A stretch of DNA of 64,000 nucleotides. Origin: Candidatus Iainarchaeum sp. (GTDB taxonomy: Archaea; Iainarchaeota; Iainarchaeia; Iainarchaeales; DTGL01). The translations under genes were made by a program, and so were the position numbers. This document shows, one piece after another, positions 2 through 8,641 of this stretch. Positions within the stretch are counted from its first letter, which is position 1. Each line of letters starts with the position of its first letter. Below the pieces are notes generated by a model. It did no database searches, was not told the origin of the DNA, and worked only from the letters and a program-made list of their open reading frames with translations. Location of the stretch: assembly GCA_026413945.1 (NCBI GenBank), contig JAOAJX010000001.1:96001-160000 (forward strand). The letters run 5' to 3'.

Positions 2-295
2 ACAATAGGAGTCTGCACTTCACAAGGCATAAAACACTGCTATTTTAGGTATGTCCCATTTTGCTACATGTACGGCGCAATAAATTTTATAAGCGAGTAT
101 GCTGCAAAGGAGTCCCTTAAGGAAAATCATATAGGCCCGGAATTTGAGGATCTTGACGTTGAAAAAAACCGCGCAAAGTATGGCCGAATAAAAGGGCCTC
201 AATGTTTTGGGTGCAAGTACAACAACGTTTGCGAAGGCATCTTCAGAGAATATGCTGAGAAGCGCGGTTTTGAGGAACTTGTGCCAGTACCGTGA
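2..295 (+). CDS. Radical SAM protein, HxsC-like, C-terminal part (5' truncated by window edge)
   Basis: Frame open from base 2 (TIGVCTSQGIKHCYFRYVPFCYM...). Shares PxC, CxxCx5C (CFGCKYNNVC) and the C-terminal YxxxxGxEExxP signature with the radical SAMs at 4760-8353. Confidence 0.75.
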   Translation, partial: TIGVCTSQGIKHCYFRYVPFCYMYGAINFISEYAAKESLKENHIGPEFEDLDVEKNRAKYGRIKGPQCFGCKYNNVCEGIFREYAEKRGFEELVPVP

Positions 296-308
296 GCAAG
301 GTGTTTTA

Positions 309-764
309 GTGGAACTAAAAATATTAGTTAAGGCCTTAAGAAGGAAAGAGTTTGCAATTCCGATAGCTTTCCTTTTGTTCCTTTTGTTTTTTGGAGCAAT
401 AATGCTTCTGGTTGATACTACAAAAAATGTTAAAAACATTGAAAGAGCAAGGATTTCTGGCTGCGTTTTGGAGTATGGGCCTTGGCAATGTATTGATGAT
501 AAAATAGCTGTACCTTTTTATAATTCCGGGGTTTTAGACATAACAATGGTAAGACTTAGATTTCCTGTAAGAAATGGCTGGAATGTGTATGAGGCAAGTG
601 GCATGCTCAGAAAAGGCGAGGCTGGAACATTGCTAACTGAAAGCTGTGCAGATGCGATAATGGAAGGCACAAAAGTTGAGTGGTGTTGCTCAAGCGATTG
701 CTTTATCAGTGACCTTAAAAACCCAAACCAAAATGTTTTAGTAAAAATAAATTCTTTTGGTTAA
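309..764 (+). CDS. Membrane-anchored pilin-like hypothetical protein
   Basis: GTG at 309 after AAGGTG. Basic N-terminus (RRK), one hydrophobic helix, then a Cys-containing domain with NSGxxDI as in archaeal pilins. Confidence 0.5.
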   Translation: MELKILVKALRRKEFAIPIAFLLFLLFFGAIMLLVDTTKNVKNIERARISGCVLEYGPWQCIDDKIAVPFYNSGVLDITMVRLRFPVRNGWNVYEASGMLRKGEAGTLLTESCADAIMEGTKVEWCCSSDCFISDLKNPNQNVLVKINSFG

Positions 765-765
765 T

Positions 766-1404
766 ATGGCAAAAATATTTTTTGGAGATGAACACCTTCC
801 GGTTTGTGAGACAAATATCGAAGCCATAAGTAAAAACAGCAAAGCGGTATTAAGCTTTACTTTTAGAGAAGTTTTTCAACAAAAAACATTTGCGGAGAAT
901 GCTAAACTGCTTGAGATTTGCCTAAAAGCAATGAAATATAAGGGAATAAGATTTTTTAGTGTGCCTTTTTGTGTCGCTGAGCCAGAAAAGGTTTCTGTTT
1001 TCAATAGCTTAGCTCTTAAGGTAAAGAGTGGGTTCTACTTTGAAGGTGCATATATGGTTCCTTTAGATAGTTGACCAGGAAAATTACCTGCCTTAAAAGT
1101 ATACGATTGCTGTTTCAGACGCGGTTTATTCGATGTATTAATGGCAATTAATTCTTTTAGTCATTTTAAGGATCCGGCTAAGAGTGTCATTGAAGCTAAG
1201 AGAGTATTGAAAGAAGGCGGCTTATTTATTTTGGTGGAAAATGAAATGGCTGAAAGAGATTTTGGGAGTAGAGATGGCTTTGATTCACATAATAGCCTAA
1301 AAAAGAAGCAGATAAAGGAGTTATTTCTGAAAAATGGGTTCATGTTAAAGACACAAAGAAAGGTTAGGCCTTACTACTTTTTGATGTTTGAGAAGGTTAA
1401 TTAA
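766..1404 (+). pseudogene. Degenerate class I SAM-dependent methyltransferase interrupted by one in-frame TGA (1072-1074)
   Basis: ORFs 757-1074 and 1141-1404 are in the same frame with no other stop between them. Read-through gives ...GAYMVPLDS*PGKL...FDVLMAINSFSHFKDP...EAKRVLKEGG, matching methyltransferase motifs. Confidence 0.6.
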
Positions 1405-1449: not shown

Positions 1450-2391
1450 TTAGCTTAGCAAAATAGCAATTGCGCATTGGCATTGAATGTCTTCTATTTT
1501 TTCGTATTTTTTCAAAATAGCATCTTTTACTTCTTTTTCTTCTTTTTGCTCTAGTAGTGGCTTTGCCTCACAAAGCTTCTTTATAAGCAGATAATCACGA
1601 ACAAAACATAAGTCTTTTGTTTTTTCTTTAATAATTATTTCTCCCATGGTATTGCAAATATTTTGTTCAAAAATGGCAGCCACCTTGCTGTTTTCTTTTC
1701 TGAGTTCTGAAAGGTTTTTGTCAAAAATGTTTAGTGCGGTTGTTGCTTTTGTTTTGAGTTTTCTTAGTTGCTCAGAAGGATCAGTTTTGTCAATTTTTAT
1801 TTCAAGTATTTTGAGTGCAATGTTTTTATCCAAAAAGTTTAAATCTCCGCATTCTTTCTCCGCTGTGACATAGCCGTACAAAGAGTCTAAGTCGTCTTCA
1901 GCGAGTTGTTTCTTTTTAAAATATTCTCTCCAGTAAGTCAGGGCTTTTGAAAACTTTGAGTTATCTAAGATTCTTTGCTTAATTTCTATCCAATTACTAT
2001 CTCTATTAAGCACTCTGATGCTAAAGCAGTATCCACCAAGTACTTTGTTTGGGTCACAAGATTCGGGCACCACACATTTTTTTTCAAACGATGCTTCTAT
2101 TAGCTTTATATGTTCTGGTTTTGTTTCTGCCAACCTTCGTTTAGCTTCAGTATCGCCTGCGAGAAAGGCAAATGTCGATTTCACAACAATGGTGTTGTGT
2201 ATTGCCTGAGGGGTGTTTTCATCAGATAATTTCATAGGTATTTCATCATAGCTGTAAAGGTAAACTTCATAACCTTTTTTTGTTGGATTTATTAGGTGCA
2301 TAATAACAAGTATTAAGGAGATAGCAAAAATTAGCAGCAGTAAAAGCATAACTAAGAACTTCTTTCTGCGATTTAGCAGAATCACGGCCAA
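1450..2391 (-). CDS. Hypothetical protein, N-terminal membrane anchor with Cys-containing helical domain
   Basis: 313-aa ORF; RRKK followed by a long hydrophobic run; last gene of the minus-strand hxs run. Confidence 0.7.
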   Translation of the reverse strand: MAVILLNRRKKFLVMLLLLLIFAISLILVIMHLINPTKKGYEVYLYSYDEIPMKLSDENTPQAIHNTIVVKSTFAFLAGDTEAKRRLAETKPEHIKLIEASFEKKCVVPESCDPNKVLGGYCFSIRVLNRDSNWIEIKQRILDNSKFSKALTYWREYFKKKQLAEDDLDSLYGYVTAEKECGDLNFLDKNIALKILEIKIDKTDPSEQLRKLKTKATTALNIFDKNLSELRKENSKVAAIFEQNICNTMGEIIIKEKTKDLCFVRDYLLIKKLCEAKPLLEQKEEKEVKDAILKKYEKIEDIQCQCAIAILLS

Positions 2392-2433: not shown

Positions 2434-4287
2434 TTAAACCTTTTTTATTTGGTTTTGCAAAAAGTATTTTTCGTAAAGGGTCTTGCGATCTAAAATATTG
2501 CCAATTTTTGGCCCGGGGCGGTCATTGCAAAACTTTATCTTTCCATCTTGTACAACTTTAAAAAGCTCTAAGCAACCAAAACAGTCCGAAGGGATTCTAA
2601 ATTCGCTGTAGAATTTCTTTTCAGCCTCTTTGCTCATCTCTTGGACAAATATTGGTTTTGTGACTAAAAAAAGCACTCTTGCGGCTTTCAAGTTGTATAG
2701 GAACTCTTTGAAAACAATTGTTTCTCTTGGATTTAATTGTTGTTTGCAAATTGGTGAAAGCAAAACCAAGCCCAATCCTTTTGATCTTTTGTTGAAACTT
2801 ACTATTTCAAAGAATAGCCTGTCAAAATCTTCCTTTTGAGGATCAAATTTAATCAAAAGCACGTCCTTCTTTATTGCAGAGTGGATACTTTGGGAAATGG
2901 TTGCTATGAAGTAATGCCCAAGCAATCTCAAGCCATCTTTGCCATCTTCTAGATAAGGTCTTAGCTTAATTGTTTCTTTATTTGCAAGGTATCTAAAATA
3001 TTCTAAAATCTCCTCTTTTCTATCATCACAATGCATCTTATCTGGAATATAAATTGTTTTGTTTTCTCTCAGGTTTCTTAGCAGACAGCCTCCCCAGCAT
3101 AGCTTAAAATCACATTTTTGGCAAAGTTTAACTTTTTTGTACCAATTTCTTAACTCTTTTAGCTTCTTGTAATCTAAAACAATTTTTTTACTTTTAACGT
3201 CATATCTGCCGAAAATCAAATATGAAGCACCATGATTGAGTATATCTTCTTTATCTCCGAGCATCGCACAGGGAGTTATAAAACCTTCGGGTGTCACCAA
3301 AAAAGTGTTGCATACAGCACACCCGCAAGCAAACTTGTTTCCTAAAGATTTTTGTGCCGGAACAAGACAGCGCAGGTTAACAAGGTCGCACATTTCTTTT
3401 ATGGCAAGCTGCGATCTGATAAGCTTTCTGTAATAATTCATGTGCCTTTTTTTGTTTTTTTTATTTGTAGCTGCTTTACCCATACAACCTACAATTGACA
3501 CAAATATTTTTTCTACACCAAGTGAGTTGAAATACTTTACGGTCTTTTGTTCTTTACCAATATGTGCATATGTCAAAGTTATTTTTATAGTAAAGTCTTG
3601 ATTTTTTGAAACGAGCGCTCTTATATGATTTTCCACTATAATACTACTTTTACCTTCATTCGTGAAAGGTCGCACTTTGTCTTGTATCTCTGGTGGCCCG
3701 TCACAAGATATTTGAAAAGAATCACCAAAATAGTTTTCTTTTAATACAGCCAAATAATTTGAAGGCGAAATGGTACCATTCGTAGAAAGTTTGAATTGTT
3801 TTACGTTAAGCTTCTTTTTTGCATAATTTATTGTTTTTAAAAATAGGTGTTCATTGAGAAGTGGTTCTCCTGAAGTTACGAAGTCAATCAACATAGGCCA
3901 ATTTTGATGCTTGGCCAAAAAATCAGTCGAAGCTTTTATTAATTCAAACGAGGAATCTTTGCCTTTCTTAATACCACCATAACCAACGCAATAACTGCAG
4001 TTCAGGTTGCATTTAGTAGTTATTACAGGAATAAAGTTTTCGAATCTGCTTATTTTTGCAAATGGCTTTTTTGAATTTATGGCAATATATTTTCTTCCAA
4101 ATTTAAGAAAAGCTTCTTCATCCATTAAAAAGAAGTTTGAGGTGTTGCTGCATATAAAGAAAAAAAAGCTTTTTCTTTTGAAGAGCATATGGAGAAAAGG
4201 CTTTCTTTGTATTAGCTCTTTTTTCACTGTCACAAGATTGCTGCTATTAAATTTTTCATTGGAGCCTTCAAAAATCTTTAAAAGCAT
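2434..4287 (-). CDS. Radical SAM/SPASM peptide maturase (HxsB-like position) with extra C-terminal domain
   Basis: CNLNCSYC, SGEPLL, STNGT and ISCDG motifs; SPASM cysteines (CGCAVC...PC...CQKCDFKLCWGGC...C); starts 15 nt after the precursor stop. Confidence 0.85.
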   Translation of the reverse strand: MLLKIFEGSNEKFNSSNLVTVKKELIQRKPFLHMLFKRKSFFFFICSNTSNFFLMDEEAFLKFGRKYIAINSKKPFAKISRFENFIPVITTKCNLNCSYCVGYGGIKKGKDSSFELIKASTDFLAKHQNWPMLIDFVTSGEPLLNEHLFLKTINYAKKKLNVKQFKLSTNGTISPSNYLAVLKENYFGDSFQISCDGPPEIQDKVRPFTNEGKSSIIVENHIRALVSKNQDFTIKITLTYAHIGKEQKTVKYFNSLGVEKIFVSIVGCMGKAATNKKNKKRHMNYYRKLIRSQLAIKEMCDLVNLRCLVPAQKSLGNKFACGCAVCNTFLVTPEGFITPCAMLGDKEDILNHGASYLIFGRYDVKSKKIVLDYKKLKELRNWYKKVKLCQKCDFKLCWGGCLLRNLRENKTIYIPDKMHCDDRKEEILEYFRYLANKETIKLRPYLEDGKDGLRLLGHYFIATISQSIHSAIKKDVLLIKFDPQKEDFDRLFFEIVSFNKRSKGLGLVLLSPICKQQLNPRETIVFKEFLYNLKAARVLFLVTKPIFVQEMSKEAEKKFYSEFRIPSDCFGCLELFKVVQDGKIKFCNDRPGPKIGNILDRKTLYEKYFLQNQIKKV

Positions 4288-4302: not shown

Positions 4303-4701
4303 TTAGTAGCAGTAAGCTGCATCACAGGCACCGATTCCACTATAATGGCTGCTGTGGCTTCCGTGGCTGCCGTGGCTTCCGTGACTTCCGTGGCTTCCGT
4401 GACTTCCGTGGCTGCTGTGGCTGCTGTGGCTGCTGTGGCTTGCGTGACTTGCATGGCTTGCGTGATGGCCGTGGCTAGCGCTAATATTGCCTGCATTCCA
4501 TCCAACGCTAAAGTAGTTTGTGTGTGTTGCTGCCACTTCAGGCAAAATATTGAGTATTGAAATCGACCCCAAAAAAGCACCAAGGGCAAGCATTTTGTGC
4601 TTTGAAATGCTGCCACGCTCTTCTAGAACAAATGATTTTATAGTTTTTTTTACTTTTGGAAGCAGAGATTCGTTTTCAGATGATTTTTCTTTTTTGGGCA
4701 T
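4303..4701 (-). CDS. hxsA: His-Xaa-Ser repeat RiPP precursor (HxsA-like)
   Basis: 132 aa: leader, hydrophobic segment, 14 tandem HxS triplets, C-terminal GIGACDAAYCY; flanked by radical SAM genes. Confidence 0.9.
   Translation of the reverse strand: MPKKEKSSENESLLPKVKKTIKSFVLEERGSISKHKMLALGAFLGSISILNILPEVAATHTNYFSVGWNAGNISASHGHHASHASHASHSSHSSHSSHGSHGSHGSHGSHGSHGSHSSHYSGIGACDAAYCY
4339..4464 (-). repeat. 9-bp tandem repeat x14 encoding (HAS)3(HSS)3(HGS)6(HSS)(HYS)
   Basis: Counted directly; plus-strand units are variants of gct-nnn-gtg with synonymous codon variation. Confidence 0.95.
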
Positions 4702-4759: not shown

Positions 4760-5602
4760 TCATATAATTGGGTTGAATTCTTCTTCGCCAGCAAGGGGTA
4801 TGTAACTTTTCCATATTTTTGGGCATTTTTCCTTAACCTTGCAGATTTCGCACGCTTCAATTAGCGTTAGTTCTGTTTCTTGCTTAGTTATTCCTTCTGC
4901 GAGATGCCAATACTTTTTGTCCATTATACAAAGAGGAAAATGAAACAGCATTACTTCAAAATTTGCCCTTAGTAAAGTTTCTGCTGCCTTCTCTACAAAT
5001 GGCGCTGCTTTGCTATACCTCACAAAAACCTTGCGCCTGTTGATGAACGCATTACCAGTGTATTTTAGGTTGATAAAAACAACCCTTTCAAGTCCTTTGA
5101 AGTTTTTCACAATGAATTCAGCGGTTTTTTTTAGATGCTTATAATTTATCTTCTCCACAAGAATTCTTAACTCAACTTTGAACCCTTTTTCCAGAAGTTT
5201 TTTTATACCATTCACGGTTTCATTCCAGCTTCCCTTGAATTGTGTTATGGAATCATGCACTTCTGGCTTGTGGCTGTACAAAGCTATGCCAAAACGTATT
5301 GGTTCAAGCTTATGCTTGCTTATCTTATCCACAAAGTCTTTACCTGAAAACTTTCGCCCATTGCTGACAACAAATATGAACTTATTAGGGTGTTTCTTTC
5401 TTGCGTATGCTAAGATATCAACGAAATCTTCCCTGAGTGTTGGCTCTCCGCCGGTAACGCCAAAAATCTCGGTTTCCGGAATCTTGTCTATAATCTCAAA
5501 TAATTTTGCTTTGCTTTGCTGCCCCAACCAGCAAGTCATTCTTGTATCAATTATGCAGCTTATGCAATTATTATTGCATTTGAAGGTTAGTGGCCACTCC
5601 AT
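4760..5602 (-). CDS. hxsC: His-Xaa-Ser system radical SAM protein, HxsC-like
   Basis: CNNNCISC, TGGEPT, SNGRKFS, HDSITQFKGSW, FPLC, CEICKVKEKC; directly upstream of the precursor. Confidence 0.75.
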   Translation of the reverse strand: MEWPLTFKCNNNCISCIIDTRMTCWLGQQSKAKLFEIIDKIPETEIFGVTGGEPTLREDFVDILAYARKKHPNKFIFVVSNGRKFSGKDFVDKISKHKLEPIRFGIALYSHKPEVHDSITQFKGSWNETVNGIKKLLEKGFKVELRILVEKINYKHLKKTAEFIVKNFKGLERVVFINLKYTGNAFINRRKVFVRYSKAAPFVEKAAETLLRANFEVMLFHFPLCIMDKKYWHLAEGITKQETELTLIEACEICKVKEKCPKIWKSYIPLAGEEEFNPII

Positions 5603-6489
5603 TTTAAGTCATCTCCAAGCAATTCTAAGCCTCTAAAGGCAACATACTTCTTGGATATACCAGGGCAATTATTTGCAAAGCGGCAATCTTTACAAATTTT
5701 CAGCTTTTCACAACTGCTTTTTATTTTCGTTTCTAAGTCAACTTTCATATCAAACCAGTACATCTTTGTCTTTAATTGGCCACAAGTAGCGCTGTCCTTG
5801 TTCTTCTTCAATGAGCATGGAGGCATATTCATTACCCAAACTGTAATGCCATGATTTTTTAGTATTGACGCAGCCGAATCCACACTTTCAGAAACCTGTG
5901 CAAACGTAGGTATGAGCCATTTGTTATTAAGCAAGTTACCGTCAATATCCGGGAATATTATGCACATTGCACGAATTTGGTAATTATTGCAGAGGAATTC
6001 TGCTAATTTAGGTAACTCATTGAAATTTATTTTATTTAATACAAAATTTACATCAATGGTAAGGTTTGCTTTTGATGCATTTTCCAGGCCTTTTATTGCT
6101 TTCTCAAATGCGCCTTTAACATTGCAAAGGAAGTCGTGCGTTTCCGGATTTAAGCCATGGATTGAAAGTATTACACCGGTTAGTCCTGCTGCAATCATTT
6201 GATCCAAAAATGCTTTATTTGAAAGCAAAAGGCCGTTTGTTGTAATCCTAACTTCTTTGGCCCCATTTTTTCTTGCAAATGCTATTAGCTCACACAGATC
6301 TTTGCGTATTGTTGGCTCGCCACCAGTAAAGTTAATCTCCTCAGCAAAGTCTTTACCTAACGCTAACATAATTTCCTTCTTTATCTCCTCTGTGCTCTTA
6401 TTCTGGTTCCTATTCCCAACAGAGCAAAAGAGGCAATTGTTGTTGCATGCAAAGCCCAAAACAATTTCAACTTTTCCTAAGTATGTCAT
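5587..6489 (-). CDS. Radical SAM protein (HxsC-like paralogue)
   Basis: CNNNCLFC, TGGEPT, TTNG, MPPC, CKDCRFANNC; AGGTG RBS. Confidence 0.85.
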   Translation of the reverse strand: MTYLGKVEIVLGFACNNNCLFCSVGNRNQNKSTEEIKKEIMLALGKDFAEEINFTGGEPTIRKDLCELIAFARKNGAKEVRITTNGLLLSNKAFLDQMIAAGLTGVILSIHGLNPETHDFLCNVKGAFEKAIKGLENASKANLTIDVNFVLNKINFNELPKLAEFLCNNYQIRAMCIIFPDIDGNLLNNKWLIPTFAQVSESVDSAASILKNHGITVWVMNMPPCSLKKNKDSATCGQLKTKMYWFDMKVDLETKIKSSCEKLKICKDCRFANNCPGISKKYVAFRGLELLGDDLKWSGH

Positions 6490-6504
6490 CAAAGCACCTG
6501 TGCA

Positions 6505-7389
6505 TCAGCTAAATTGCAGCAACAGACCTTTTTCAATTTCCCCAACAAACTTTTTGCCAGAGTAAACTCTTAAAGAATCTTCTTTTGCAATAATGGAGTT
6601 TCCTTTGGATAAGATACCTTTAAACCCACTGAAGTCAATGGATAATTCACCAATAATTGAAGAGTATCTTATTGAATCACCTTCTTTGTGGCCTTCAAAT
6701 GTGCAAAACTCATGATCATTCCACACGATAATTGGCTTCTTTAAAAAATGTTCTGCGCTCTTGCAGAAAGCGGGTATTTGTTTGCTTAAGATATGTTGCA
6801 TTTTTCTTCCAAATTTTAGGCTTTCCTTACAGTCAAAAGAACATGGTTGGTGTGGTATGAAAAAAAGGTTATAAGTGCTTATCCTAATAAAATTTTCATC
6901 ATTGCCAATCAAAGCATAGTCGCCTTTGCTAGAGAAATTGTATGTTGAGTTAAGAAGGAAGTTAAGCTTTTTGCTGTTTTGGAAGATCCTTTCAATAAGG
7001 TTGTAGTCATACTTACCGCCCTGTTTTGAACAGGGGTTTTTTTCAGACAAGGTTTTAATGAAAAAGGAAGTGCAGCAAGGCGGATAGCCAAAAAGGTCAC
7101 CAACATCTATTCTATTGGCATTAGCTTCTGCTCTGGCTGCTTTTTCAATATCTTGCCTCGATTTTGAAATATATGCCAGAAGCATGCTTTCTTTTGTTTC
7201 GTAAATTTTAATCCTCTTTACTTCGCATTCTAAGCCCCAGCCCTTTGCGAGTTTTTTTACGCTTCCCTTGTCATTTTCTGATATTCCTGTTCGCGAAACC
7301 GGCTTTAGGTCATAAACTACTCCAAAAAAATCCACTGGTGAAAAGAACCCAAGCCAAGTTGGTTTTTCAAATAAAATTTTGCTACGCAT
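6505..7389 (-). CDS. DUF483-like protein
   Basis: GDLFGYPPCCTSFF and FIPHQPCSFDC motifs; ATG at 7389 directly follows the upstream stop. Confidence 0.7.
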   Translation of the reverse strand: MRSKILFEKPTWLGFFSPVDFFGVVYDLKPVSRTGISENDKGSVKKLAKGWGLECEVKRIKIYETKESMLLAYISKSRQDIEKAARAEANANRIDVGDLFGYPPCCTSFFIKTLSEKNPCSKQGGKYDYNLIERIFQNSKKLNFLLNSTYNFSSKGDYALIGNDENFIRISTYNLFFIPHQPCSFDCKESLKFGRKMQHILSKQIPAFCKSAEHFLKKPIIVWNDHEFCTFEGHKEGDSIRYSSIIGELSIDFSGFKGILSKGNSIIAKEDSLRVYSGKKFVGEIEKGLLLQFS

Positions 7390-7390
7390 A

Positions 7391-8353
7391 TCAATACTCC
7401 TGCAGCTTAAATTCTTCTGTGGTAATTTGTTTTCCTTCAATAGGCTTGAATTCTGAAAAGCCCCTTACACGAGTATATTCCTTGAAAGGGCCAACGCAGA
7501 GTAAAAAATATTTGCATTTTTTGCAATTTGCGCCTTTGCTTCTGTACTTCTGCCTGTTTTTTTGTATGTCTGCCCTGAACTTTGGCCCAATCAAAATTGT
7601 GTTTGTGACAGTGAGCTCAGACATAATGTTTGTGTAGCTTGGCAATATGCAAGGATACATATTATGCAAAAAAGGCTTTCCACCCTCTTTGAGTAGAATA
7701 TCACACGCCTCTTTGATGTAAGAAGCAGCTTCATCTATCCTTGGAACCATTCGCTCGAAATCCTGTTTAGCGAAGCCGTCTGGTATTGCAAAATTTAAGT
7801 GATAGCTTTTGGTGTTCTTCTTGAACTTGAGAAGGAAAGCAGCCATTTCAGGCAGTTTTTCATAATTGTAGGTGTTTATTACCGTGCTTGTGCGCTTTTC
7901 AATGCCAAGATCTTCAAGATTTTTCAAGCCAGCAACTTTGTCATCGAAAGAACCTTTTGTTTGCGTAAGGAAATCCTCTAATTTTGCATTTGGCGCGTGT
8001 ATTGATACGAGTACTCGGTTTACACCTAAATCAAAAATTTTCTTCGCATAGTTACGGTACTTAAGCATGCAGCCATTTGTCTGGATCTCAATGACTTCAA
8101 AACCAAGCTTTTTTGCATATCTTATTGCCTCAAACAAATCTTTCCTTATAGTTGGCTCGCCGCCGGAAAAAGATATTATGTCTGCGCCGCATCTCTTGGC
8201 AAACTCCAAATCCTTTTTTATTTCCAACCAGCTTTTTGCGCGGCCATCTGAAACAAGCTTGTGGCCTACCGAGCAAAAAATGCAGCGCTGATTACATTGC
8301 CAATTAACCAGAATTTCAACCTTTTTAAGCCCAATTTCAGCTCTTTCATTCAT
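7391..8353 (-). CDS. Radical SAM protein (HxsC-like paralogue)
   Basis: CNQRCIFC, SGGEPT, IQTNG, YPC, CKKCKYFLLC, YxxxRGxxEFxPI. Confidence 0.85.
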   Translation of the reverse strand: MNERAEIGLKKVEILVNWQCNQRCIFCSVGHKLVSDGRAKSWLEIKKDLEFAKRCGADIISFSGGEPTIRKDLFEAIRYAKKLGFEVIEIQTNGCMLKYRNYAKKIFDLGVNRVLVSIHAPNAKLEDFLTQTKGSFDDKVAGLKNLEDLGIEKRTSTVINTYNYEKLPEMAAFLLKFKKNTKSYHLNFAIPDGFAKQDFERMVPRIDEAASYIKEACDILLKEGGKPFLHNMYPCILPSYTNIMSELTVTNTILIGPKFRADIQKNRQKYRSKGANCKKCKYFLLCVGPFKEYTRVRGFSEFKPIEGKQITTEEFKLQEY

Positions 8354-8371
8354 TTTCAATACCGCATAAAA

Positions 8372-8608
8372 TCAAGGTGAAGCGCCCTTTATTAGGCTCA
8401 AGACATAATTGCAGAACTCAAGGGTTAACTTTTCAGCAGAAACAGCCTCTGTTTTCATTGTAATGTGAAAATATCTGCCGGACTCTTTTTTTGTTATTTT
8501 TGCGCCTTTAACCTCTTTAAGCGCCTTATTAACTATTTTTCTTGGGTAAAAGGCCTTTGAAAGGTTTAATGTTGCTTTTTTTCCATCTTCTTTTACTTCC
8601 AATAACAT
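8372..8608 (-). CDS. Small HxsD-like protein
   Basis: LSKAFYP...LEFCNYVL resembles the HxsD pattern; GGGTG RBS before the ATG at 8608. Confidence 0.6.
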   Translation of the reverse strand: MLLEVKEDGKKATLNLSKAFYPRKIVNKALKEVKGAKITKKESGRYFHITMKTEAVSAEKLTLEFCNYVLSLIKGASP

Positions 8609-8641
8609 TTTAAGCACCCTGCATGGGCAAATGCTAAACCT

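Follow-up and report, generated by a model that had tools for sequence, protein, structure and literature searches.

What is the short, histidine-rich peptide encoded near the start of this stretch of archaeal DNA, which enzymes would modify it, and by what route would it reach the outside of the cell? The stretch, here called the window, comprises 64,000 nucleotides of a Candidatus Iainarchaeum sp. genome of 0.95 Mb (92% complete; assembly GCA_026413945.1, contig JAOAJX010000001.1, positions 96,001 to 160,000), and the peptide is encoded by an ATG-initiated open reading frame (ORF) of 132 amino acids at 4303 to 4701 on the minus strand (stop codon, 4303 to 4305). A preliminary description, made from the sequence alone, had portrayed the product as a modular precursor with a charged leader, a signal-like segment, a core of HxS repeats, and a tail with a pair of Cys residues. 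On codon-by-codon reading, every element named there was present at 4303 to 4701 on the minus strand, and the modular organization was borne out by the sequence and by conservation among 51 homologues. The anatomy was accurate; what had gone unrecognized was a narrower identity, that of a substrate of the known His-Xaa-Ser (HXS; Hxs) system. By profile matches and gene content, the locus is identified as the substrate and machinery of an expanded archaeal HXS system (DPANN, Iainarchaeum-like), in which a prepilin-type peptidase probably removes the leader. The precursor gene was divided into the following parts.

4303 to 4701, minus strand: HxsA3/HxsA4-like precursor gene, 132 amino acids plus stop codon, the sole copy in the genome
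4723 to 4731, minus strand: TATA-like TTTTAAATA, 22 to 30 nucleotides 5' of the ATG, inside a 58-nucleotide spacer
4612 to 4701, minus strand: leader, residues 1 to 30, charged and basic, rich in Lys and Glu, with the motif P15-K-V-K-K-T-I-K-S-F-V-L-E-E-R-G30; proposed to be cytoplasmic, with the A24 peptidase cutting after Gly30
4543 to 4611, minus strand: S31-I-S-K-H-K, then the hydrophobic helix M37 to L53, a predicted transmembrane or signal-anchor segment in which Gly41 is invariant
4528 to 4542, minus strand: P54-E-V-A-A58, a possible signal peptidase I site V-A-A/T (PEVAA/TH, residues 54 to 60), read from the sequence
4465 to 4527, minus strand: His-bracketed module T59 to H79 (HTNYFSVGWNAGNISASHGH), a predicted beta-hairpin
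4339 to 4464, minus strand: 14 His-Xaa-Ser units, (HAS)3(HSS)3(HGS)6-HSS-HYS, residues 80 to 121, predicted by AlphaFold2 to be disordered
4306 to 4338, minus strand: tail GIGACDAAYCY, residues 122 to 132, with two Cys residues and a terminal Tyr, likewise disordered in the AlphaFold2 prediction

HXS is a four-gene antiphage system, HxsD-HxsB-HxsC-HxsA (NCBIfam TIGR03976 to TIGR03979), as set out in the accessible text of Li et al. (Nat Commun 2026, PMC13128918). The window starts inside a cluster of about 13 kb with two divergent arms, the remainder of which lies to the left of the window (coordinates of stretch L009 below). The cluster contained HxsB, five HxsC-like enzymes, one extra radical S-adenosylmethionine (SAM) enzyme of the SPASM type, two HxsD-like proteins, one A24 peptidase, and one substrate.

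2 to 295, plus strand: C-terminal end of a 304-amino-acid HxsC4-like radical SAM enzyme
2434 to 4287, minus strand: 617-amino-acid radical SAM/SPASM enzyme, directly downstream of the precursor gene (PapB-type model, 99.9 bits, cut-off 340; HxsB, 61 bits; both under cut-off)
4760 to 5602, minus strand: HxsC-like radical SAM enzyme, 280 amino acids (TIGR03977, 203.8 bits, cut-off 267.9)
5587 to 6492, minus strand: HxsC-like radical SAM paralogue, 301 amino acids (TIGR03977, 119 bits; HxsC4, 111 bits)
6505 to 7440, minus strand: 311-amino-acid protein with no family assigned (no NCBIfam match; weak DUF483 match, 18.5 bits against 25), kept in the clusters of close relatives
7391 to 8359, minus strand: HxsC4-like radical SAM paralogue, 322 amino acids (NF038332, 136 bits, cut-off 500)
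8372 to 8617, minus strand: HxsD-like protein, 81 amino acids (HxsD_rel NF038315, 43.3 bits against a cut-off of 41)
8642 to 9154, minus strand: HxsD-related protein, 170 amino acids (TIGR03976, 40.2 bits, cut-off 50)
9821 to 10753 of L009, left of the window: HxsC4-like radical SAM enzyme, 310 amino acids
10746 to 12251 of L009, left of the window: HxsB, 501 amino acids (TIGR03978, 429.2 bits, above the cut-off of 370)
12260 to 13330 of L009, left of the window: A24 peptidase, 356 amino acids (Peptidase_A24, PF01478, 36.7 bits against a cut-off of 26.5), which also matches Arc_PepC, the archaeal C-terminal domain

The HXS identity was assigned because HxsB and one HxsD-like protein scored above their cut-offs, because HxsC or HxsC4 was the top model for all five HxsC-like paralogues, and because HxsA3 (NF038309, 38.9 bits, cut-off 65) and HxsA4 (NF038313, 46.6 bits, cut-off 55) were the only NCBIfam models matched by the precursor. 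Positions 2 to 49 of the HxsA3 model aligned to the leader and hydrophobic segment. The same model matched 39 of the 41 members of the precursor family, with every score under the curated cut-off, and gave matches in 28 of 215 genomes of the phylum, reaching its cut-off in none of the 215. Several marks of the four-gene system were missing: no HxsC-like paralogue reached the TIGR03977 cut-off (best, 203.8 bits), no HxsA model exceeded its cut-off (TIGR03979 gave no match to the precursor at E ≤ 0.01), and the gene order hxsD-hxsB-hxsC-hxsA was not present. With the PADLOC library of 2023, which is older than the HXS paper, the hits were confined to a generic likeness of radical SAM enzymes to viperins; the precursor, the HxsD-like proteins, and the A24 peptidase drew no match.

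Searches for homologues of precursor residues 1 to 76 returned two close matches among 5.8 billion proteins (E values of 3e-35 and 4e-25; 87% and 68% identity), and, in a set of 1.84 billion cluster representatives, 48 relatives of the leader had E ≤ 1e-3. The nearest named relatives were metagenome-assembled genomes of Candidatus Diapherotrites/Iainarchaeum; within the source genome, a search with the precursor-family profile gave one match, i.e., a single copy. Ratios of nonsynonymous to synonymous substitution rates (dN/dS) against two congeneric orthologues were 0.034 and 0.028 over the 66 codons from Pro15 to His80, with 27 synonymous and 6 nonsynonymous differences from the first. Selection on the peptide had previously been argued from synonymous variation among the 9-bp repeat units, which is weak by itself, the variation within the repeats being small (CAC/CAT, AGC/AGT, and GGA/GGC); selection is shown by the between-genome dN/dS of about 0.03 and not by variation within the array. 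The TATA-like TTTTAAATA upstream of the gene is possibly the precursor's own promoter, although in this AT-rich genome it may have arisen by chance.

To characterize the leader, 51 sequences (the precursor and 50 relatives, P0001 to P0050) were aligned and anchored on Gly30 as position 0. The conserved positions were as follows.

Position -15: Pro in 47 of 51
Position -12: Lys in 45 of 51
Position -11: Lys in 43 of 51
Position -6: Phe or Tyr in 51 of 51
Position -2: Glu in 50 of 51
Position 0 (Gly30): Gly in 50 of 51, Ala in 1 of 51
Position +2: Ile in 46 of 51
Position +3: Ser or Thr in 48 of 51
Position +4: Lys in 50 of 51
Position +11 (Gly41): Gly in 51 of 51

Judged from this alignment, conservation of the leader far exceeds that of any ordinary signal peptide. 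Positions +1 to +6 followed the pattern x-I-S-K-x-x in the 51 sequences, and the helix began at about +7. Past the leader, the cores of the 51 precursors diverged fully, ranging from 0 to more than 30 HxS units and including HSSC repeats and Cys-rich and Gly/Thr-rich stretches, with an aromatic C-terminal residue in about half (Tyr in 18, Trp in 4, and Phe in 3 of 51). A conserved leader joined to a hypervariable core is the signature of a substrate of leader-guided maturation.

The hydrophobic segment ISKHKMLALGAFLGSISILNIL (residues 32 to 53) had a mean Kyte-Doolittle hydrophobicity of up to 1.69 over 19 residues and 2.05 over a 17-residue core. AlphaFold2, run on a 41-sequence alignment, predicted a leader helix at residues 13 to 27, a loop at 28 to 33 that includes Gly30, and a 19-residue helix at 34 to 52; the mean predicted local distance difference test score (pLDDT) was only 64.9, with structured parts at 72 to 86 and the block of the 34-to-52 helix at 79 to 86. 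The N-terminal flank of the helix was more positively charged than the C-terminal flank in 50 of the 51 sequences (median charges, +4 before and -1 after), and under the positive-inside rule the core is therefore expected outside the membrane (N-in/C-out). The precursor core is most likely exported or membrane-tethered, judging from these sequence features. The preliminary description had proposed the same and had named a hydrophobic segment lost among homologues as the result that would speak against it; the alignment gave the contrary, the segment and the motif preceding it being kept across the 51 homologues.

These data also bear on whether the product is exported at all. Like the large leaders of some peptides that are made by ribosomes and modified after translation (RiPPs), the leader and helix might together form a long recognition element for HxsD and the radical SAM enzymes, with a cytoplasmic product. 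Radical SAM enzymes are cytoplasmic, and the invariant Gly41 and conserved small residues of the helix could mean protein-protein packing. HxsD-like domains were, moreover, fused ahead of the leader in two relatives (23.7 and 27 bits, cut-off 41), the metagenomic proteins P0021 and P0047, at residues about 28 to 87 and 103 to 150, respectively. These fusions are a Rosetta-stone hint of possible leader binding by HxsD-type proteins, and they fit a cytoplasmic leader that docks maturation proteins. A cytoplasmic product is nevertheless considered quite improbable: it conflicts with the positive-inside flanks in 50 of 51 sequences, the hydrophobicity of 2.05 over 17 residues, the linked integral-membrane protease that is predicted to bind this very segment, and the export of bacterial HxsA described in the accessible text of PMC13128918.

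Tat (twin-arginine translocation) export of the precursor was considered and rejected. The preliminary description had noted a Tat-like spacing, which did not hold up: there is no twin Arg, its place being taken by S-K-H-K, with S-K-[QH] as the conserved form, and a search that detected TatC in control genomes found none in this genome, which is 92% complete.

The route favored here, which we infer at each of its steps and regard as probable, has the leader cut after Gly30 by the A24 peptidase of the cluster and the modified His-rich peptide then displayed outside. The basic leader of about 30 residues would stay in the cytoplasm as a handle for the HxsD-like proteins and the seven radical SAM enzymes (HxsB, the five HxsC-like enzymes, and the extra SPASM enzyme), for which the His-Xaa-Ser array would be the common target, the Cys/Tyr tail being probably the target of the 617-amino-acid SPASM enzyme. 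Helix 37 to 53 would insert N-in/C-out, so placing the hairpin, repeats, and tail outside. The A24 peptidase, a prepilin-type, GxGD-like aspartyl enzyme and the third of its kind in the genome, would cut at the cytoplasmic face in the loop after Gly30 (F-x3-E-x-G / x-I-S-K). Prepilin peptidases cleave Flp pilins and archaeal pilins after the Gly in this manner. The product would stay tethered by its helix or be freed when signal peptidase I cuts behind V-A-A58. By analogy with HXS, the exported, modified peptide most likely acts in the cell envelope, where its action is possibly directed against viruses.

The evidence for the peptidase step came from gene linkage, conserved residues, and a modeled complex. 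The preliminary description had likened FVLEERG (residues 24 to 30) to Flp prepilins, a useful lead, as F-x3-E-x-G was near invariant and a dedicated A24 peptidase with both Asp residues was linked to the precursor. Features shared with prepilins included Gly or Ala at -1 of a conserved motif (50 and 1 of 51), a basic leader (median charge, +4), and the cognate two-Asp A24 enzyme. The source genome contained three A24 genes; the cluster copy had the lowest Pfam score and is therefore taken to be an extra paralogue and not the housekeeping enzyme. Its catalytic residues D20 and D76 were invariant in 15 orthologues, the second within the motif W-[SP]-A-[GA]-D-[AS]-K-L-F. An A24 homologue was present in 16 of 20 precursor-centered loci of relatives; the four others were a 3.3-kb contig, a stretch ending 232 nucleotides past HxsB, a 13.5-kb stretch of a 14.2-kb contig, and a stretch that also had no HxsB. 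The order A24, HxsD, (HxsD-like), HxsB, precursor, radical SAM enzyme was found in 11 loci (L039 to L049). As a separate observation, the A24 homologue of relative locus L033 occurred in two adjacent pieces, 2902 to 3288 and 3293 to 3712 on the plus strand, with no single ORF spanning them, which may reflect a frameshift or an assembly error.

In a converse search, the A24 alignment was compared with one genome per species, giving 168 relatives, and up to 8 kb around the peptidase gene was examined for the best 80. A leader-type precursor, called with a leader-only hidden Markov model, accompanied the peptidase in 46 of these loci, HxsB in 60, both in 44, and neither in 18, many of the loci being truncated and the relatives not independent of one another; as a yardstick, just 28 of the 215 genomes of the phylum had any HxsA3-like match. 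The hosts of the best 80 were DPANN archaea (Iainarchaeum, Aenigmatarchaeota, Nanohalarchaeota, Woesearchaeota, Pacearchaeota, Micrarchaeota, and Undinarchaeota), candidate phyla radiation (CPR) bacteria, and Omnitrophota. A modeled complex of the A24 peptidase with precursor residues 1 to 76 scored 0.65, against 0.00 for the best of three controls; of 157 solved complexes, 116 attained this score, as did 2 of 215 mismatched pairs, counts that apply only approximately here because the present complex was modeled from custom alignments. Model runs shared at least 67% of contacts, with a partner pLDDT of at least 53. The interface comprised D20 and residues 24 to 28 and 70 to 78 of the enzyme and residues 23 to 50 of the precursor, with D76 touching Ile32. 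The model supports binding of precursor segment 23 to 50 at the active site of the peptidase.

Several results weigh against this route. The Pfam models Flp_Fap and Class_IIIsignal matched none of the 41 family members, even at E ≤ 10, a threshold at which the HMMER filters still drop most weak matches. Gly30 is followed by six polar residues (S-I-S-K-H-K) before the hydrophobic stretch begins, E5/Y6 is lacking, and the residue at -2 (counting Gly as -1) was Glu in 25 of 51 sequences, unlike a canonical class III or Flp signal. Among the 80 A24-selected loci, 34 had no precursor in the flank and 18 had neither precursor nor HxsB, and related genomes are not independent observations. In the complex, no Gly30-Asp pair was among the best-defined contacts, the score is the model's own confidence, and the partner pLDDT was low (54 to 55). 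Radical SAM chemistry would precede export, so that some 80 residues of modified and perhaps cross-linked core would need to pass through the membrane post-translationally. The X residues here are Gly, Ser, and Ala and not the basic ones that underlie the DNA-binding model of Escherichia coli HxsA. Membership in the Flp or archaeal class III families was rejected on the profile evidence.

The pilin-like leader and the cluster's own prepilin-type peptidase would also suit a minimal pilin, which the neighboring type IV (FlaI/FlaJ-like) machinery would polymerize into a His-rich surface filament once A24 had cut. Genes resembling FlaJ and FlaI lie at 12976 to 16949 beside the cluster, as they do in two close relatives. 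FlaI/FlaJ homologues were found near A24 in just 3 of the 80 A24-selected loci, however, despite their adjacency to the source cluster, and were absent from 11 loci of a second family; the polar N-terminus S-I-S-K-H-K and the missing pilin profile match also speak against polymerization, which is regarded as very improbable.

A second possible cleavage site lies beyond the helix. The A-x-A-type site proposed in the preliminary description was sustained insofar as V-A-A/T satisfies the -3/-1 rule, with Pro at -5, and the genome encodes an archaeal signal peptidase I (74.3 bits, exceeding its cut-off); the V-x-A ahead of x-H-[TS]-N recurred in close orthologues. It failed as a general feature, Pro54 (11 of 51 at that column) and the V-x-A (A-x-A) pattern being limited to the close subfamily. 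The site raises the alternative of an ordinary Sec signal peptide with a long n-region, from which signal peptidase I, cutting after V-A-A58, would release a soluble peptide beginning T-H-T-N, with A24 serving other substrates or clearing the remnant. The positive n-region and the 17-residue h-region fit this design, and a Sec-type signal peptide (residues 1 to 22) is described for E. coli HxsA in the accessible text of PMC13128918. Set against this, the leader is conserved motif by motif across phyla, which is not normal for signal peptides, the A24 gene co-occurs with those of the precursor and HxsB, and the modeled complex places residues 23 to 50 on the peptidase. This alternative is judged rather unlikely; it partly overlaps the A24 route because both cuts could occur.

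The region between helix and repeats had been described as a spacer with lone Tyr, Phe, and Trp residues. These aromatics (Y63, F64, and W68) were present, but residues 60 to 81 were instead a conserved, predicted hairpin: AlphaFold2 placed strands at 60 to 69 and 72 to 81 (block pLDDT, 79), and His60 and His77 were kept at 90% or more in the 41-sequence alignment.

The array itself had a period of 9 bp with 13.2 copies and 84% matches at 4346 to 4464 (Tandem Repeats Finder). Repeat number varied from 7 to 27 units in orthologues. The preliminary description's suggestion that different radical SAM paralogues act on different repeat blocks was not upheld, as the A, S, and G units were interleaved in orthologues and the block order of X residues was specific to the source genome. 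This block order, together with an 18-bp subperiod in the HGS block, looks like the outcome of recent local duplication. All Ser codons from residue 65 onward were AGC or AGT, and seven of the eight earlier ones were TCN, a split that agrees with expansion of the array from a single founder unit. Public contigs of run X1 split into pieces of 35 to 76 nucleotides with a few variant letters inside the repeat array, at 4316 to 4400, an assembly problem and possibly strain heterogeneity. The congeneric locus L032 (genome G052, 10242 to 11948) was without the genes for the 301- and 322-amino-acid HxsC-like enzymes and the 311-amino-acid protein and had one HGS unit against six here; this is a single case and maybe a coincidence.

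Tails of orthologues were variable, with one to four Cys residues. The 617-amino-acid SPASM enzyme, which has long N- and C-terminal extensions, adjoined the precursor in all nine loci of the Cys-tail subfamily and in none of 11 loci of the other group (best match per region), where 10 peptides ended in S-H-x-S-Y without Cys. The A24-selected loci contained 49 precursor ORFs; of the 19 whose cores had at least two Cys residues, 8 were accompanied by a second SPASM-type enzyme, as were 2 of the 30 with fewer. Both comparisons are weakened by truncated loci and shared ancestry. These associations point to the adjacent 617-amino-acid enzyme as the probable modifier of the Cys/Tyr tail, so that the earlier proposal of a radical SAM paralogue for the tail gained some support where that of one paralogue per repeat block did not. 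In some precursors (P0006, 367 amino acids; P0047, 508 amino acids; and L120, 3742 to 5052, minus strand), an intein/Hint domain directly followed the core; in P0006, it scored 25.4 bits with the N-terminal model (cut-off 24.5) and 21.8 bits with the C-terminal model (cut-off 15.6). Such fusions suggest self-cleavage that sets the C-terminus of the core. Two Woesearchaeota precursors (L097, 12689 to 13288, plus strand; L107, 6847 to 7419, plus strand) carried a C-terminal extension after the repeats that starts with S-D-x-[RK]-L-K-Q and that seems to resemble Peptidase_S74, the intramolecular, self-cleaving chaperone domain found in phage tail spikes.

Taken together, the probable anatomy of the precursor is a cytoplasmic leader, a likely A24 site after Gly30, a membrane helix, a His-bracketed hairpin, an expanding and contracting array, and a lineage-specific Cys tail. 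The locus shows a much larger version of HXS in DPANN archaea, with relatives in CPR bacteria, as against its published near-confinement to Pseudomonadota. If the A24 route is correct, it would represent a new protease class for the removal of RiPP-type leaders, with a testable site at Gly30, and genomes of less than 1 Mb would devote about 13 kb to a single exported His-rich peptide, presumably for envelope defense or metal handling. A bolder version, offered as speculation with little probability, is that an A24 protease was recruited as a RiPP-type leader peptidase and that the helix-bearing peptide enters a His-rich filament or a dense envelope layer that bars viral DNA or captures metals. 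If true, ultra-small archaea and bacteria would possess a hybrid of pilin biogenesis and RiPP chemistry, and a pointer to the processing step of bacterial HXS would be gained. No literature linking A24 (prepilin) peptidases to radical SAM peptide maturation was found.

Other ORFs in and beside the cluster were as follows.

207 to 1074, plus strand: two small ORFs of 185 amino acids (with a hydrophobic segment) and 105 amino acids, found in close relatives only, with no family match
1450 to 2391, minus strand: 313-amino-acid protein with an N-terminal hydrophobic segment, downstream of the 617-amino-acid enzyme, kept in close relatives, with no family match
1141 to 1404, plus strand: 87-amino-acid ORF whose match to a class I methyltransferase domain is limited to the final 30 positions, probably a gene remnant between the cluster arms
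9225 to 16949, beside the cluster: a 1,238-amino-acid secreted protein with Big_3_3, two FlaJ/TadC-like membrane proteins, and a 761-amino-acid FlaI-like ATPase

The FlaJ/TadC-like and FlaI-like proteins (12976 to 16949) were identified by eye, and the neighbors at 9225 to 16949 were syntenic in close relatives only. Three regions paralogous to the 311-amino-acid protein were present in relative locus L036.

Several known systems share parts of this arrangement. Among SPASM maturases of the PapB, sactipeptide, and ranthipeptide types, whose substrates have Cys-containing cores, PapB provided the best model for the 617-amino-acid enzyme, which goes with Cys-tail precursors; unlike PapB, the enzyme scored far under the cut-off (99.9 bits against 340) and has long terminal extensions, and a thioether product is only conjectural. 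Flp/Tad prepilins, processed by TadV/CpaA, and archaeal class III signals, processed by FlaK/PibD/EppA (MEROPS A24), have a short basic leader with F-x-x-[DE]-E-x-G at its end, a Gly or Ala residue at -1, a membrane helix, and a two-Asp membrane peptidase. The present locus has the same elements, with the membrane aspartyl peptidase encoded nearby, and differs from both in the six polar residues before the helix, the lack of E5/Y6, and the lack of a profile match. The peptidase motif is W-[SP]-A-[GA]-D here and G-x-G-D there, no consistent linkage to pilus assembly was found, and the cargo appears to be a repeat peptide modified by radical SAM enzymes.

EpeP (M50) of Bacillus, an intramembrane metalloprotease in epipeptide maturation (PMC10885120), offers another likeness, as a membrane-embedded protease acting on a radical-SAM-modified peptide, with coupling to export as proposed here; EpeP is a metalloprotease of a Bacillus, whereas the enzyme here is an A24 aspartyl protease of an archaeon. 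Within its accessible text, that review of RiPP leader proteases contains no occurrence of prepilin, A24, aspartyl, or aspartic.

The closest counterpart is HXS itself, for which a block on the entry of phage DNA into E. coli was demonstrated in 2026 (PMC13128918, accessible text, also for what follows). There, N-terminal cleavage of HxsA requires HxsB, HxsC, and HxsD, a +8-Da change occurs in one SHRSS unit, and the protein works in the periplasm, where it probably binds DNA as it enters. HXS systems are reported to lie in Pseudomonadota in 99.7% of cases and to have the four-gene organization in 99.6%; that text makes no mention of archaea, prepilin, peptidase, protease, or HxsA3, and in it the protease that trims HxsA is not identified. 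The two systems have in common a His-Xaa-Ser substrate, an HxsB-type SPASM enzyme (above cut-off here), HxsC-type enzymes, a small HxsD-type protein, a predicted N-terminal export segment on the substrate, and, as proposed here, N-terminal cleavage during maturation. They differ in that the archaeal locus has seven radical SAM enzymes against two, two HxsD-like proteins, and a dedicated A24 peptidase; its 132-residue precursor has no peptidoglycan-binding domain and carries 14 repeats with neutral X residues against five basic ones, and it has a Cys tail and, in place of a 22-residue Sec signal, a conserved pilin-like leader. The neutral X residues do not fit the electrostatic DNA-binding model of E. 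coli HxsA in the accessible text of PMC13128918, and in this archaeal host an antiphage role is an analogy only. HxsA3 (NF038309), HxsA4 (NF038313), and HxsC4 (NF038332) are named NCBIfam variants for which no study was found, and all scores from the locus were under their cut-offs. On these comparisons, the locus, though lacking several marks of the canonical HXS family, would work like HXS, through leader-guided radical SAM maturation of an exported His-Xaa-Ser peptide, and would add to it a pilin-style processing step.

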